From the IMG/VR virus record IMGVR_UViG_2541047715_000004: DNA of 64,000 nucleotides; one strand, written 5' to 3'. This DNA is from a virus. Its lineage: Duplodnaviria > Heunggongvirae > Uroviricota > Caudoviricetes. This document shows positions 8,602 through 12,372 of the stretch, piece by piece. Below the pieces are notes generated by a model. The model was not told the DNA's origin. It saw only the letters and a list, made by a program, of their open reading frames with translations, and ran no database searches. The position numbers and the translations under genes are program-made. The first letter of the stretch is position 1. Each line of letters begins with the position of its first letter.

Positions 8602-9192
8602 ATGACGACGAAGACACCAGCCCGATCGCAAGCAAAAACTCGCAAAAATGACAAAAACAAAAATTCTCCCCGCACCAATTCCACAACGCCTGTCGTAGAG
8701 TTCAATCCCCAGCTTAAAACCGTGAAAATCTTCAGTGATGGCTCTTGCCTTAAAAATCCGGGTGGCCCGGGCGGTTACGGTATAGTTCTCCAGTATGGTG
8801 GTGAGGAACGCGAGTTCTCAGATGGTTTTCATAGCACCACCAATAACCGCATGGAGATGATGGGGGCACTTATCGGGCTGGAGCGTTTGAAATATCCATG
8901 CAACGTTATTTTGTACTCTGATAGCCAGTATCTGAAAAACGGCATGACACAGTGGATGAAATGGTGGAAACGCAATGGATGGATGACTTCTGACAAAAAA
9001 CCGGTAAAGAATGTTGATCTGTGGAAGCGTCTGGATGAGGCCGCAAGTCGACATAATGTTCGCTGGAAGTGGGTTAAAGGTCACGCCGGGCATCGTGAAA
9101 ATGAAATATGTGATCGACTCGCGAAGATCGCAGCTTTTTCAGCAGCAGATATGCCTCACAAGAAAGATATTGGTTTTGTTTATAACAAGTAG
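8602..9192 (+). CDS. rnhA: ribonuclease HI with basic N-terminal extension
   Basis: [21 protein letters not shown], catalytic core and [11 protein letters not shown]; AGGAG RBS before ATG 8602. Confidence 0.85.
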
Positions 9193-9340
9193 TAAGTAAG
9201 TGTTTACCTATCATTTTAAATCATGTATCTTATCAGCGTCAGGATGACAATGTGTCGGTAAGACACAGTTCCAGGATGGAACGAGAAAGGCGGCTGGCGA
9301 TCGCCAGCCGCAACTCTTTCTGACACTGGATGGAGTCCAC

Positions 9341-9835
9341 ATGGCACGTCAAACCTATTTCACTTCTGCAACTAAACGTCCTCGTTCTTTACGTCAAATT
9401 TTGGCCGAATTGTTTAGCGGTCGTGTTATGTCACGTCTTGATGAACTAGAGACTACCGTTCGGTTGCTGAATGAACGTTTAGATAATCAAGCGTCAGTTG
9501 TTGCGAACGTGGGGGCGATTGTTGCCTCTGGTTCTTCACGCGAAGCGAAAAGTACACGGCCTTTAGTGAAGGAGAAAAACAACAAGGACAGTTCGAATGG
9601 AAAATTTTCAAAGAAAGAGGCTGAAACCAATGGCCTACGTTCTCATTATAGTTTCACTGGCGACGGTAGCCGTTCCAGCCGGCCAGAGCCTTTTGATGCC
9701 GGGTTCATCCATCACCACACCTCCGTCGACGACAATTACCACCACTCCAGTAGAGCGTCCTGTCACTCTGGATGGGATGACGGTGGATGCGATACCTCAA
9801 GTTCATCCAGTTACTCAGGATCATGTTGTGACTAA
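9341..9835 (+). CDS. hypothetical protein (coiled-coil N-terminus; C-terminal part may be out-of-frame read-through)
   Basis: ORF overlaps 9630-9848 in another frame. Confidence 0.3.
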   Translation: MARQTYFTSATKRPRSLRQILAELFSGRVMSRLDELETTVRLLNERLDNQASVVANVGAIVASGSSREAKSTRPLVKEKNNKDSSNGKFSKKEAETNGLRSHYSFTGDGSRSSRPEPFDAGFIHHHTSVDDNYHHSSRASCHSGWDDGGCDTSSSSSYSGSCCD

Positions 9836-9848
9836 GGTGGTTGTATGA
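9630..9848 (+). CDS. hypothetical small membrane/secreted protein
   Basis: Hydrophobic N-terminus MAYVLIIVSLATVAVPA; ATGA overlap with next ORF. Confidence 0.35.
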   Translation: MAYVLIIVSLATVAVPAGQSLLMPGSSITTPPSTTITTTPVERPVTLDGMTVDAIPQVHPVTQDHVVTKVVV

Positions 9849-10033
9849 ACTGGCTTTCAAATCACTTTGGGAAAATTTGGCTGGCAATTCTGGCTCTCAT
9901 GGCCGCCGGTTGGGTATCCAACATTATAAAACTCGTTTGCTCAGGTGATCTCCAGTTTCAGGCTGGCATGACCTTGGCTCGTGTAGTTGGGATTTTTATT
10001 TTTCCAGTCGGTTCGGTACTTGGTTATTTCTGA
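9845..10033 (+). CDS. small membrane protein
   Basis: 62 aa with two hydrophobic helices; translationally coupled to upstream ORF. Confidence 0.4.
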   Translation: MNWLSNHFGKIWLAILALMAAGWVSNIIKLVCSGDLQFQAGMTLARVVGIFIFPVGSVLGYF

Positions 10034-10087
10034 CGGTTGTTAGTGCATATGCATTGACCGTCTTTGCGTAAGCAATTTATGTAACCA

Positions 10088-10104
10088 GAAAACAATTTGT
10101 TTTG
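10088..10104 (+). promoter_or_regulatory. conserved palindrome GAAAACAA-N-TTGTTTT (family 1)
   Basis: About 23-39 bp upstream of ATG 10127; recurs at 10817, 23557, 23608, 26416, 26900, 27804, 28568, 37428, 37455. Confidence 0.5.
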
Positions 10105-10126
10105 ACAAATAGCAAAAGGAAAACAC

Positions 10127-10552
10127 ATGTTAGGTTTCTTCAAAAAGAAAACTCGTAAAGCTGTTATCGAAGTCAAAAAAATGGAGAACCGTGATGCGGT
10201 TGAAGCCACCGTGTGGGGCGGGTACATGATCTCCTATGCCAACGGTACATGCGATGCAAAAGAAATTTCCATTCTTGAGAAAACAATTGCAGCTCTGCCT
10301 GCATTTTCTCCTTTTGCTGGTGAGATTGCCCAGATGAGCGCCAATATCCGCGCTCAATACGAAGCCTCACCGCGCCGTGCTAATGCCCAGGCTTTACGTG
10401 AGCTGGCGGATGTGGCCGGGACTGATGATGCAGTAGATGTACTGTGTCTGTGCCTTGATATTGCCGACCAGGACGGCATTGATGAACCAGAAGAGCAGGC
10501 GCTGAAAAAGATCGCCCAGGCGCTTCAGTTGTCACTGGATGCTTATCTCTAA
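10127..10552 (+). CDS. TerB-like domain protein
   Basis: Pattern resembles tellurite-resistance TerB; C-terminal DQDGIDEPEEQALKKIAQALQLS. Confidence 0.5.
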   Translation: MLGFFKKKTRKAVIEVKKMENRDAVEATVWGGYMISYANGTCDAKEISILEKTIAALPAFSPFAGEIAQMSANIRAQYEASPRRANAQALRELADVAGTDDAVDVLCLCLDIADQDGIDEPEEQALKKIAQALQLSLDAYL

Positions 10553-10710
10553 TGCTTGAGAGATTCCGGCTTGTGACCGTCATTGCTCTTCTGGTGATAG
10601 CGGTGTTGGTGGATTTTACGGGAAAGATGATGTCTGTCATTTCTGATGGCGTCCTCATTGGTCTGGCGATCTACTTCGCTTATCCGCTAGTCCGTAAAGC
10701 AACGTGTTAA
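10552..10710 (+). CDS. small hydrophobic protein (52 aa), coupled to TerB-like gene
   Basis: TAATG stop/start overlap; not in ORF track because shorter than 60 aa. Confidence 0.35.
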   Translation: MLERFRLVTVIALLVIAVLVDFTGKMMSVISDGVLIGLAIYFAYPLVRKATC

Positions 10711-10711
10711 T

Positions 10712-10745
10712 GACAAGGGCCAAATGGCCCTTGTGTTTCGTTGAC
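10712..10745 (+). terminator. rho-independent terminator
   Basis: CAAGGGCCAAATGGCCCTTG followed by TGTTTCGTT. Confidence 0.55.
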
Positions 10746-10816
10746 CGAAATAGAGAGTTTGCACCTTTACGTTTAGCTTGCTCCCCTTTTATGCCACATC
10801 ACAATAAAGCCAATAA

Positions 10817-10833
10817 GAAAACAACTTGTTTAA
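10817..10833 (+). promoter_or_regulatory. family 1 palindrome (GAAAACAACTTGTTTA)
   Basis: 17-33 bp upstream of ATG 10850. Confidence 0.45.
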
Positions 10834-10849
10834 GCATTAGGAAAAACAC

Positions 10850-11419
10850 ATGTGCAAGAAATGCAAAGCGATAGCTGATGAACAAAACGCCTTATTCGAA
10901 GAAATGGATGCTAATGAACTGGTCAAAATGTTAGCCATTCTTCGAGGAATAGAAGACGTTTCCATATTTGAGAGAGTGGTTACAGCACTTAATTTTGAGT
11001 CCACCTTTGAAGAGCCAACTCAGGTTGTAGCTTTAGCACATCATTTCGGTGTTCATTATCTTGCTGAAAAAGAGCGCGCTGATAAGTTGCAGGCGACTTT
11101 GGATATGGTGAGCGAGACTCAACGAACTGATGACACTAACAAGAGTGAGGCGATTATTGCCAGCAAAGATCGTGAAATTGCTGGGCTTAAATCCTCTCTA
11201 ACGATGTTGATGTCTGCGTTCAATCTTATGTCTTCTCAGGCGGGTTATAAAATGCCATCACTAAACAGCGATGATCCGATGGCCGTTCGTCAGCTTTTGG
11301 GAGCAATGGCCGACCAACTCGACGACACAAAGAGTCGCCTTGAAGACATGATGCGTGAGTTAAGCCATCGACATAACCTCGCAACACAACCACACAAAGT
11401 CTTTCAAAGCTCTAATTGA
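10850..11419 (+). CDS. hypothetical protein
   Basis: 189-aa ORF preceded by family 1 palindrome and AGGAAA RBS. Confidence 0.5.
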   Translation: MCKKCKAIADEQNALFEEMDANELVKMLAILRGIEDVSIFERVVTALNFESTFEEPTQVVALAHHFGVHYLAEKERADKLQATLDMVSETQRTDDTNKSEAIIASKDREIAGLKSSLTMLMSAFNLMSSQAGYKMPSLNSDDPMAVRQLLGAMADQLDDTKSRLEDMMRELSHRHNLATQPHKVFQSSN

Positions 11420-11473
11420 TCTGATATGGCCGCATGATCGGCCATATTGTGTTGATAAAAACAAGGGTGAAAA

Positions 11474-11755
11474 ATGGCATACGGTACAGGGATTTACAAC
11501 AATAAAGGAATTAACGTTACTGGCTTCCTTACACCTATTTTTTTTCTTGATCGATTTACGGCGTCATCAGGCTCTAAGACGTACTCTAATCCGCCACCGG
11601 GTAAATCACTACATGCCGTGTGGTCATTAATGCCTCTTAACAACGACAACTACATCAATTTACCTGTTCCAAATGTTACTATTAATGGAAATACGGTTAG
11701 TTGGTCAAATTTATATACGGGGCTTGGTTCTTACATATACACATACTGGGGATAA
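11474..11755 (+). CDS. hypothetical protein (N/G/T/Y-rich)
   Basis: AT-rich ORF. Confidence 0.35.
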   Translation: MAYGTGIYNNKGINVTGFLTPIFFLDRFTASSGSKTYSNPPPGKSLHAVWSLMPLNNDNYINLPVPNVTINGNTVSWSNLYTGLGSYIYTYWG

Positions 11756-11757
11756 TT

Positions 11758-12372
11758 ATGTTCGGGATGTCAATTACTCAATCAGATGGAAGTTTGTGGA
11801 TGAGTCCTGAATTTACTCCGCAAAATCTGATTAATAAAGGGACAATGTCTACATCTAAAGGTTCTGTTTTTCAAACATCAATCCCATCAAACAAATCATG
11901 CTTTTTCTTCATAAAAAGCAGCAATAAGGCGAACATGATGTTTATTCATGAACATAGTAACGGATACAATGCTCTCAGATTGCATCAGGTAAATGGTAGC
12001 CCCGGAACAATAACAGTTTATGCTTTTTCTGATATGGTGTTACCACATTCTGGCTATGGCATTGCCATGTATAACAGCGCAGGCGCAATGGTGTATCACG
12101 GTGAGATGATGCCCCTTGATGCAAAACTTATCACTATTACTGACCCACAATTTACAATAGATATGGGGTATCCGTGCGCAGTAATGCCTGCTATGGTTGG
12201 GGTTTATAACTATAGACGAACCGATTACGACAGACCTGTCTATGTAACTATGACCGGTGCAACTGGAAACCAAGTATATAACGGTCAATGGTATTCCGGT
12301 AATGTCACATGGGATATTAAGAAGATTTATACAAACAAAATCCTGGTTATAAATACCTCAAAGTATGATTAG
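11758..12372 (+). CDS. hypothetical protein (beta-rich, N/Y/G/T-rich)
   Basis: ATG 11758 directly after previous stop; AT-rich. Confidence 0.4.
   Translation: MFGMSITQSDGSLWMSPEFTPQNLINKGTMSTSKGSVFQTSIPSNKSCFFFIKSSNKANMMFIHEHSNGYNALRLHQVNGSPGTITVYAFSDMVLPHSGYGIAMYNSAGAMVYHGEMMPLDAKLITITDPQFTIDMGYPCAVMPAMVGVYNYRRTDYDRPVYVTMTGATGNQVYNGQWYSGNVTWDIKKIYTNKILVINTSKYD

Follow-up and report, generated by a model that had tools for sequence, protein, structure and literature searches.

A predicted tciA-tciB cassette of the phage P1 type, with a TerB-family gene coupled to a 52-amino-acid DUF3927 gene, in an Escherichia/Shigella phage-plasmid

We analysed a 64-kb stretch of viral DNA (IMG/VR record IMGVR_UViG_2541047715_000004; herein 'the window', meaning the whole stretch of 64,000 nucleotides), and within it the segment between positions 10127 and 10710. 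As judged from its sequence, this segment is almost certainly an accessory cassette of two translationally coupled genes, the orthologue of tciA-tciB in phage P1, and the P1 gene names are used for it below. The pair is already known, being catalogued in Pfam and PHROGs and annotated in close relatives of the window, and the carrier replicon is a phage-plasmid of about 108 kb of Escherichia/Shigella, a member of the group including Cyrano, PhiR41_1 and CMS-2020a. The two genes and the signals directly attached to them are as follows (aa, amino acids; nt, nucleotides).

10116..10121, plus strand: Shine-Dalgarno-like AAGGAA, 5 nt before the tciA ATG, as read from the sequence
10127..10552, plus strand: tciA, ATG start, 141 aa, cytoplasmic TerB-family protein
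10550..10554, plus strand: TAATG stop/start overlap, taken as the signal for translational coupling
10552..10710, plus strand: tciB, ATG start, 52 aa, small hydrophobic protein of the DUF3927 family
10713..10734, plus strand: stem-loop, then GTTTCGTT, just after the tciB stop, from a terminator scan

The 141-aa protein was matched by the Pfam TerB family PF05099 over residues 33-136 (E=1e-5, 26.2 bits against a cut-off of 24.4) and was assigned in PHROGs to phrog_632, annotated 'tellurite resistance' (2.8e-61). A profile built from 12 phage homologues matched Klebsiella TerB (2jxu) in PDB with E=5.7e-17, residues 14-138 of the query being aligned to residues 20-145 of the chain, and PF05099 was matched by 12 of 12 divergent phage TciA homologues (best E=1.8e-17). 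The profile was needed for the PDB match, for a single-sequence phmmer search of PDB with TciA gave only noise; likewise, tblastn with the window TciA does not reach TerB of the IncHI2 type. By structure comparison the TciA fold is all-helical and TerB-like, and a viral fold library returned four phage TerB-like matches to the TciA model. An earlier note, made from the sequence of this segment, had claimed a TerB-like open reading frame (ORF) at 10127, and the Pfam score above cut-off, the PHROG 632 assignment and the profile match to 2jxu bear it out; the search with the TerB hidden Markov model (HMM), which the same note had proposed as a check, gave a significant hit.

Residues 1-18 of TciA form a basic N-terminal tail (+6) with a hydrophobic patch, MLGFFKKKTRKAVIEVKK, which is of low predicted local distance difference test score (pLDDT) in the model, that is, disordered by itself, and beyond the tail follows an acidic (-12) six-helix TerB domain. 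Among the 12 divergent phage TciA proteins, K7 and K18 in the tail and D23, G40, E46, D95 and E122 in the body are invariant. An acidic motif is duplicated, with one copy in each half of the domain (N39-G40...E46 and D116-G117...E122), and the two copies align with SDG..SEE and SDG..DDE of 2jxu. Within these motifs no variation is seen at G40, E46 and E122 and very little at D39, most homologues having D at the position where the window protein has N39.

The 52-aa protein was matched by the Pfam family DUF3927 (PF13064) over residues 4-51 (E=3.3e-12, 46.7 bits against a cut-off of 25) and by phrog_1470, annotated 'TciB-like' (5.6e-20). It is strongly hydrophobic, with a grand average of hydropathy (GRAVY) of 1.37 and K/R at both ends, and carries two hydrophobic segments, at about residues 7-20 and 27-44, flanking the conserved core VDF[TS][GS][KR]xMSxxxDG; the hydropathy and the placing of the K/R residues would agree with a hairpin whose termini are both cytoplasmic. 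In 30 aligned sequences R6, D21, S28, D32, G33 and P45 are invariant. This is the tiny hydrophobic ORF that had been noticed as missing from the ORF track, maybe through a default ORF minimum of 60 aa, and both its hydrophobic character and its conservation in relatives were confirmed. A DUF3927 profile search of 1.8 billion representative proteins yielded 182 clusters at 50% identity, almost all of them standalone proteins of 45-65 aa; the four longest matches inspected proved to be chimeras or frameshift products, and a genuine charged tail at the C terminus extends three others to 83-92 aa. The divergent family members P0359, P0371 and P0380 keep the DF.S..SV..DG core and have an extra charged, coiled-coil-like C-terminal tail of 30-40 residues, which suggests the cytoplasmic C terminus as the place of partner binding. 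A possible origin of TciB as a fragment of TerC was rejected (hhalign probability 0.05%).

The TAATG overlap, likewise pointed out in the earlier note, lies at 10550-10554, and the weak Shine-Dalgarno sequence of tciB itself fits translational coupling. The stem-loop at 10713-10734 folds as RNA with -21.6 kcal/mol (z = -5.7) and has a moderately T-rich tail; it is a probable intrinsic terminator closing the two-gene unit. We consider tciA and tciB to form a compact unit of their own because of the overlap, the Shine-Dalgarno pattern and the stem-loop after the second stop.

The coupling of the TerB-like gene to the 52-aa ORF proved to be nearly constant outside the window. In the IMG/VR loci, found with either the window TciA or the TciA of the lambdoid phage JLK-2012 as seed (mutually 40% identical), a DUF3927 ORF lies directly downstream of the TerB-like gene in 160 of 160 cases, and in 156 of these 160 viral loci no more than 3 nt separate the start of the TciB HMM alignment from the final base of the tciA stop. 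The same arrangement was found in all 20 full-length loci of GTDB genomes, where TciA is 38-84% identical, and in 207 of 213 full-length TerB-like genes when every locus retrieved from phages, prophages and genomes is counted. These searches employed single-sequence seeds plus a 6-sequence alignment, and the seed from Pseudomonas phage nickie gave 2 loci. The pair is carried by P1, lambdoid JLK-2012, the Klebsiella phage-plasmid pJN2-26, the Erwinia jumbo phage ChrisDB, the N4-like Salmonella phages SP-076 and SP-058, Pantoea phage LIET2 and nickie, and a reverse look-up from four DUF3927 proteins found a TerB gene immediately upstream in every place listed.

The exceptions are few. The Vibrio N4-like phages BUCT194 and vB_VpaP-MS02 carry the order TerD-TerD-x-TerC-TerB, the last gene being TciA-like, without DUF3927; their Ter cluster lies in the early region and reads TerD, TerD, a TerB-like gene, TerC/Alx and the TciA-like TerB. 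Pseudomonas phage AF has a TerB gene without DUF3927 and, in its place, an unannotated 73-codon ORF with a single transmembrane (TM) segment overlapping the TerB stop (1932-2153), which could be a membrane partner unrelated to DUF3927, or an ORF that arose by chance. Phage PMBT3 has a TerB gene without any small partner. Apparent natural fusions of TerB and DUF3927 were rejected after inspection: in P0097, which comes from a single contig, a one-base frameshift has joined a P1-like pair, and P0259, P0311, P0338 and P0312 are chimeras or frameshifts. Two pseudogenised copies of tciB, frameshifted beside an intact tciA, are present in the IMG/VR loci L073 and L084, and the frameshifts in tciB (L073, L084, P0097 and P0311) represent either sequencing errors or decay of a small gene. 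As a separate observation, tRNA genes adjoin tciAB in four unrelated phages, P1, JLK-2012, ChrisDB and nickie; in P1 and JLK-2012 they are tRNA-Asn and tRNA-Thr, located just upstream of the pair.

Both genes are under purifying selection. The ratio of nonsynonymous to synonymous substitution (dN/dS) against the window copy is 0.05-0.16 for tciA and about 0.2-0.3 for tciB, the latter from diverged comparisons in which dS is saturated. The two partners have not diverged in parallel, the pairwise identities of TciA and TciB being weakly correlated (r = 0.43). In the sister N4-like Salmonella phages SP-076 and SP-058, which carry the pair in the same genomic slot, TciA is 34% and TciB 98% identical, a clear case of the replacement of one partner; the opposite discordance is seen in other pairs, with TciA 87-88% and TciB 27% identical. 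This discordant divergence indicates that partners have been exchanged by recombination and are still compatible, and therefore any contact between them should use invariant features, or else both act on a common third party.

The replicon itself was readily placed. Over 1.4 kb around the pair the sequence shares 95-98% identity with three Escherichia phages of 107-109 kb, PhiR41_1, CMS-2020a and Cyrano, and the Cyrano DNA, 96% identical across the pair region, is annotated there as encoding 'P1 TciA-like' and 'P1 TciB-like' proteins. Identical or near-identical copies of the pair reside on phage-plasmids of about 107-115 kb of Escherichia, Shigella and Klebsiella, and proteins identical to the window TciA and TciB are present in public sequence collections. 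TciA was found in 666 plasmid records of PLSDB, 652 of which are non-mobilizable; among the 30 records listed, the plasmids are mostly 92-115 kb, and 100% identical copies came from Shigella sonnei and Escherichia albertii. A survey of phage-plasmids (PMC9600943) lists a 'DUF3927 family' protein and 'tellurite/colicin resistance' among the genes of the pSLy3-type group. The carrier of the pair, called simply a phage in the earlier note, is thus to be corrected to a phage-plasmid of the Cyrano/PhiR41_1/CMS-2020a group, as opposed to a generic lytic phage, and the 'early region' of that note to a presumed one. By tblastn, TerC, TerD, TciC and a second copy of the pair were all absent from the 64-kb window (best E 0.9 for phage TerC/TerD), no Ter gene is annotated within 6 kb of the pair in Cyrano, and the window contains no tRNA gene. 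No NCBIfam family matches TciA or TciB, and Rfam gave no meaningful match over 9000-12000. In short, the window copy is an ordinary member of a catalogued gene pair.

Upstream of tciA two palindromic elements were recognized.

10044..10053, no strand assigned: perfect 10-bp palindrome TGCATATGCA, 11 nt after the stop of a 62-aa ORF, overlapping the inverted repeat I15
10088..10103, no strand assigned: palindrome GAAAACAATTTGTTTT resembling an operator, 24 nt ahead of the tciA start codon; its family has further members across the window

That a palindrome of a repeated family precedes the TerB ORF, as the earlier note had stated, holds true: the family gives 27 strand-matches in the window against 5.2 expected, with a maximum of 12 after shuffling. 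The family, GAAAACAANTTGTTTT, comprises about 14 sites (10088, 10817, 23558, 23609, 25222, 26417, 26901, 27804, 28568, 30961, 32471, 37430, 37455 and, weakly, 13065), which are intergenic and lie just upstream of small genes without known function; two sites are double (23558/23609 and 37430/37455), and a GATAAT-like hexamer stands 11-12 nt upstream at several of them. The set looks like the operators of one regulator. Upstream of tciA the palindrome is kept at -39 to -42 in 51 related phage-plasmid loci, including those of Klebsiella, and it is absent from all other contexts of tciAB (P1, lambdoid and lytic). We consider it to be a regulatory element of the replicon, lying outside the cassette, because its conservation upstream of tciA is confined to the phage-plasmid relatives, and the copy in front of tciA is probably an operator of this replicon. 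As for the protein that binds it, the ten genes beside the sites belong only to families of unknown function in Pfam and PHROGs. A sigma-70 scan detected no convincing promoter upstream of tciA; by eye, TTGACC at 10054-10059 directly follows TGCATATGCA with a poor -10, and a second TTGACC lies at about 10742-10747, upstream of the next gene.

The genes on both sides of the pair deserve brief description. The next gene downstream (10850..11419, plus strand; 189 aa, phrog_5508) is preceded by a second copy of the palindrome (10817-10832), and its upstream layout is as that of tciA, with the palindrome and then AGGAAAAACACATG; it is probably under the same control as tciA. The upstream neighbour (9845..10033, plus strand) is an ORF of 62 aa belonging to phrog_6006; its two hydrophobic stretches make it look, by eye, like a small protein of the membrane. 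Klebsiella relatives have kept it, as judged from the database protein P0034, in which a homologue runs on into the TciA frame, and it is absent from the P1 and lambdoid contexts of tciAB.

The genomic contexts of the pair in other phages give hints on the time of its expression. In P1, tciAB follows Pban, a promoter/operator under C1 control, and precedes ban, with which it shares the strand. Many lambdoid prophages carry it between the antiterminator gene Q, often after an N6 methyltransferase gene, and the holin gene; this interval generally accommodates accessory genes, or morons, for example stx between Q and S. In P22-like prophages its place is in the leftward early operon, where it follows cI/N directly and precedes kilR and gam/erf, a slot in lambda and P22 that we take to be the sieB/ral position. 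Strictly lytic phages, both N4-like and jumbo, carry the pair as well. In all temperate phages whose neighbouring genes were readable, the operon is one of lytic growth, and the contexts together suggest that the pair would be expressed in lytic development and not for lysogenic conversion. The earlier note had guessed at a membrane-associated 'host-takeover or exclusion pair', which is a reasonable guess, and both the lytic-growth operons and the sieB/ral slot in P22-like prophages are consistent with it.

Taking these observations together with the literature, we propose that tciAB encodes a minimal Ter-type module at the inner membrane, a mechanism to which, as a whole, we assign a probability of about 0.4. 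TerB has been described as a peripheral, amphitropic membrane protein and possibly as a membrane-surveillance domain, and the defence systems Bunzi, Shango and Dionysus all contain TerB domains; in the last of them a TerB-like protein is paired with a four-TM pore-forming toxin. In the proposed mechanism, TciB would be inserted in the inner membrane. Its most likely form there would be a hairpin of two helices whose N and C termini both face the cytoplasm, the conserved Asp/Ser/Gly motif occupying the turn together with the outer half of the second helix. TciA would be a soluble protein of the TerB fold, attached peripherally to the membrane from its cytoplasmic side, on TciB or close to it, and brought there by its conserved basic, hydrophobic tail and duplicated acidic DG...E motifs, by TciB, or by both. 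The translational coupling would provide TciA and TciB in roughly fixed proportion. The 52-aa TciB may stand where the large membrane protein TerC stands in full ter clusters, an idea raised because DUF3927 is absent in the two phages with TerC. The module would be made in lytic development and would be dispensable for plaque formation; in P1, CRISPR interference against tciA, tciB and tciC left the plating efficiency unaffected, at 0.65 to 1.3 (PMC10695390). Its role may be to guard the infected cell's envelope, or to keep watch over it, where the membrane is attacked by superinfecting phages, by pore-forming colicins or by abortive-infection effectors of the host. A survey of jumbo phages (PMC7824862) noted standalone TerB in Erwinia phages and suggested that Ter genes serve in competition with superinfecting phages. 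The identity, fold and hydrophobicity of the two proteins, their tight coupling, the purifying selection and the operon contexts are observed; that TciA and TciB form a physical complex, how TciB is oriented in the membrane, when this replicon expresses the pair and what the pair does are what we infer.

Several observations weigh against this picture. The Pfam score of the window TciA by itself barely exceeds the cut-off, though we do not regard it as a false positive because the 12-homologue profile matches 2jxu and all 12 divergent homologues match PF05099. The model of TciB by AlphaFold2 is one continuous helix of residues 2-51 (pLDDT 90.6; predicted template modelling score 0.45), not a hairpin. 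TciB is without sequence similarity to TerC as tested by hhalign, and the argument for the substitution of TerC rests on two closely related Vibrio phages. The two Pseudomonas phages AF and PMBT3 possess a TerB gene without DUF3927. The low correlation of identities and the discordant pairs argue against a co-evolving, lineage-specific interface between TciA and TciB. Finally, the searchable literature gave no experiment on the function of TciA or TciB.

Other explanations were weighed on the same evidence. That the 52-codon ORF might be a chance reading frame, the TerB gene alone being real, could be argued from its shortness and its weak Shine-Dalgarno sequence, and its probability is practically negligible: it is already refuted by conservation, as seen in the match of 46.7 bits to a curated Pfam family, the intact ORF beside TerB in 207 of 213 loci, some with TciA identity as low as 30-40%, the six residues invariant across 30 sequences, the dN/dS of about 0.2-0.3 at saturating dS, and the 182 clusters at 50% identity among 1.8 billion proteins. 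Among the functional alternatives, the pair could act in exclusion, TciA sensing a signal of a second infection, from the membrane or a small molecule, and releasing or activating TciB, which then oligomerises, depolarises the membrane and aborts the competitor. Dionysus, with its TerB-like protein and four-TM pore-forming toxin, and the presence of TerB in Bunzi and Shango offer precedents, and the order of genes, TerB and then a small membrane protein coupled in translation, suits a regulator and its effector. The invariant polar or acidic residues D21, S28, D32 and G33 of TciB, located within or at the edge of the hydrophobic segments, the position in P22-like prophages just after cI/N and upstream of kilR, and the location of the operon in a highly variable region of P1-like elements point in the same direction. 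This function is nevertheless unlikely, since strictly lytic N4-like and jumbo phages carry the pair and a self-killing effector is harder to rationalise there, and since PADLOC-DB 2.0.0 (2023), a library that predates Dionysus (posted 2025), contains no family matching TciA or TciB at E<=1; the two pseudogenised copies of tciB beside an intact tciA fit neither model strongly.

By analogy, TciA might be a counter-defence decoy, a phage TerB that mimics the TerB domains of the ter operon, with its phage-inhibition phenotype, or of Shango, Bunzi and Dionysus, and that competes at the membrane for their ligand or docking site and so blinds the surveillance there. The presence of the pair in lytic-phase operons of many unrelated virulent and temperate phages, the TerB domains of several validated defence systems, and the shuffling and loss of the pair in the manner of arms-race genes would all agree with such a role, which we hold to be rather improbable, the argument being purely analogical, TciA being a full-length TerB-like protein and not a truncated mimic, and the need for a dedicated, strongly conserved membrane partner being left unexplained. 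A role in metal or ion homeostasis, in which TciB would bind and modulate a host transporter, as other very small membrane proteins do, and TciA would bind divalent metal via the DG...E motifs, adjusting the Mn/Ca/Zn or proton balance to the needs of phage replication, draws on the duplicated acidic motifs and the invariant D23, G40, E46, D95 and E122 of TciA. Metal binding has reportedly been predicted for Ter proteins by comparative genomics. Furthermore, TciA-like genes stand beside TerC/Alx 'metal homeostasis' genes in the Vibrio phages, and a recent paper ties terC to zinc as well as tellurite resistance. As no transporter is encoded nearby, no TerC or TerD was found in the window by tblastn, and TciB is dissimilar to TerC, we regard this role as improbable. 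Even less can be said for a modulator of lysis timing that tunes holin triggering through the energised membrane: many lambdoid prophages do have the pair immediately upstream of the holin and endolysin genes, but that interval, as said, is a general accessory slot, and the pair lies away from the lysis genes in the window, P1, P22-like prophages and lytic phages, which renders such a function very unlikely.

Going back to the inner-membrane module, a bolder form of it would regard TciA-TciB as the smallest self-contained TerB system, with a TerB sensor and a 52-aa membrane effector, present in at least 7 unrelated phage lineages with its parts shuffled, and excluding competitors or blinding TerB-based immunity in lytic growth. 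This form is speculative and somewhat unlikely; if true, it would offer a tractable two-gene model of what a TerB domain does. The function of the TerB domain is still described as unknown in the literature on defence systems, and the domain is of wider interest because it occurs in the classical ter cluster as well as in several anti-phage systems that have lately been validated. A unit of about 590 bp with two non-essential genes, carried by the model phage P1 and by hundreds of phage-plasmids of clinical Escherichia and Klebsiella, tciAB is a convenient small system for the study of TerB function through its near-obligate coupling, the shuffling of partners and the lytic-operon contexts. 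In the literature searched we did not find stated the near-invariant coupling to DUF3927, the partner shuffling, or the absence of DUF3927 where TerC is present.

Among known systems, the closest is tciA-tciB(-tciC) of P1 (AF234172). TciA is 141 aa in both and 80% identical by tblastn, the second gene is of the DUF3927 family in both, and the stop and start overlap as TGATG in P1 and TAATG in the window. The P1 annotation gives tciABC as tellurite/colicin resistance and phage inhibition, named 'by homology', so that the name records homology rather than experiment. P1 differs in that its TciB is merely 38% identical to that of the window, in its third small gene tciC, where the window has a terminator after tciB and no TciC match, in its flanking tRNA genes, which the window lacks, and in the C1-controlled ban operon, in place of which the window has a palindromic operator-like site. 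With the lambdoid accessory genes (sieB, ral and rex, and morons such as stx) only the position in operons is shared, and no similarity of sequence or fold to the pair turned up in the Pfam and PHROG scans, the sole comparison made.

The TerB of the Klebsiella terZABCDE(F) cluster (2jxu) shares with TciA full-length homology, seen by profile comparison (E=5.7e-17), size, the duplicated DG.....E motifs and the helical fold. In contrast to that cluster, no TerC, TerD, TerZ, TerA or TerE is encoded in the 64-kb window, and the partner of TerB is the 52-aa membrane protein. To our knowledge, a membrane protein of this 52-aa DUF3927 type is not part of ter clusters. Dionysus (DinA/DinB/DinC), Bunzi and Shango resemble tciAB in combining a TerB-type protein with membrane-embedded partners, for which membrane surveillance has been proposed. 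Their partners are larger and multi-domain, either a four-TM pore-forming toxin or a helicase plus an ATPase, and they are host-encoded defence systems, whereas tciAB is encoded by phages and located in lytic operons.

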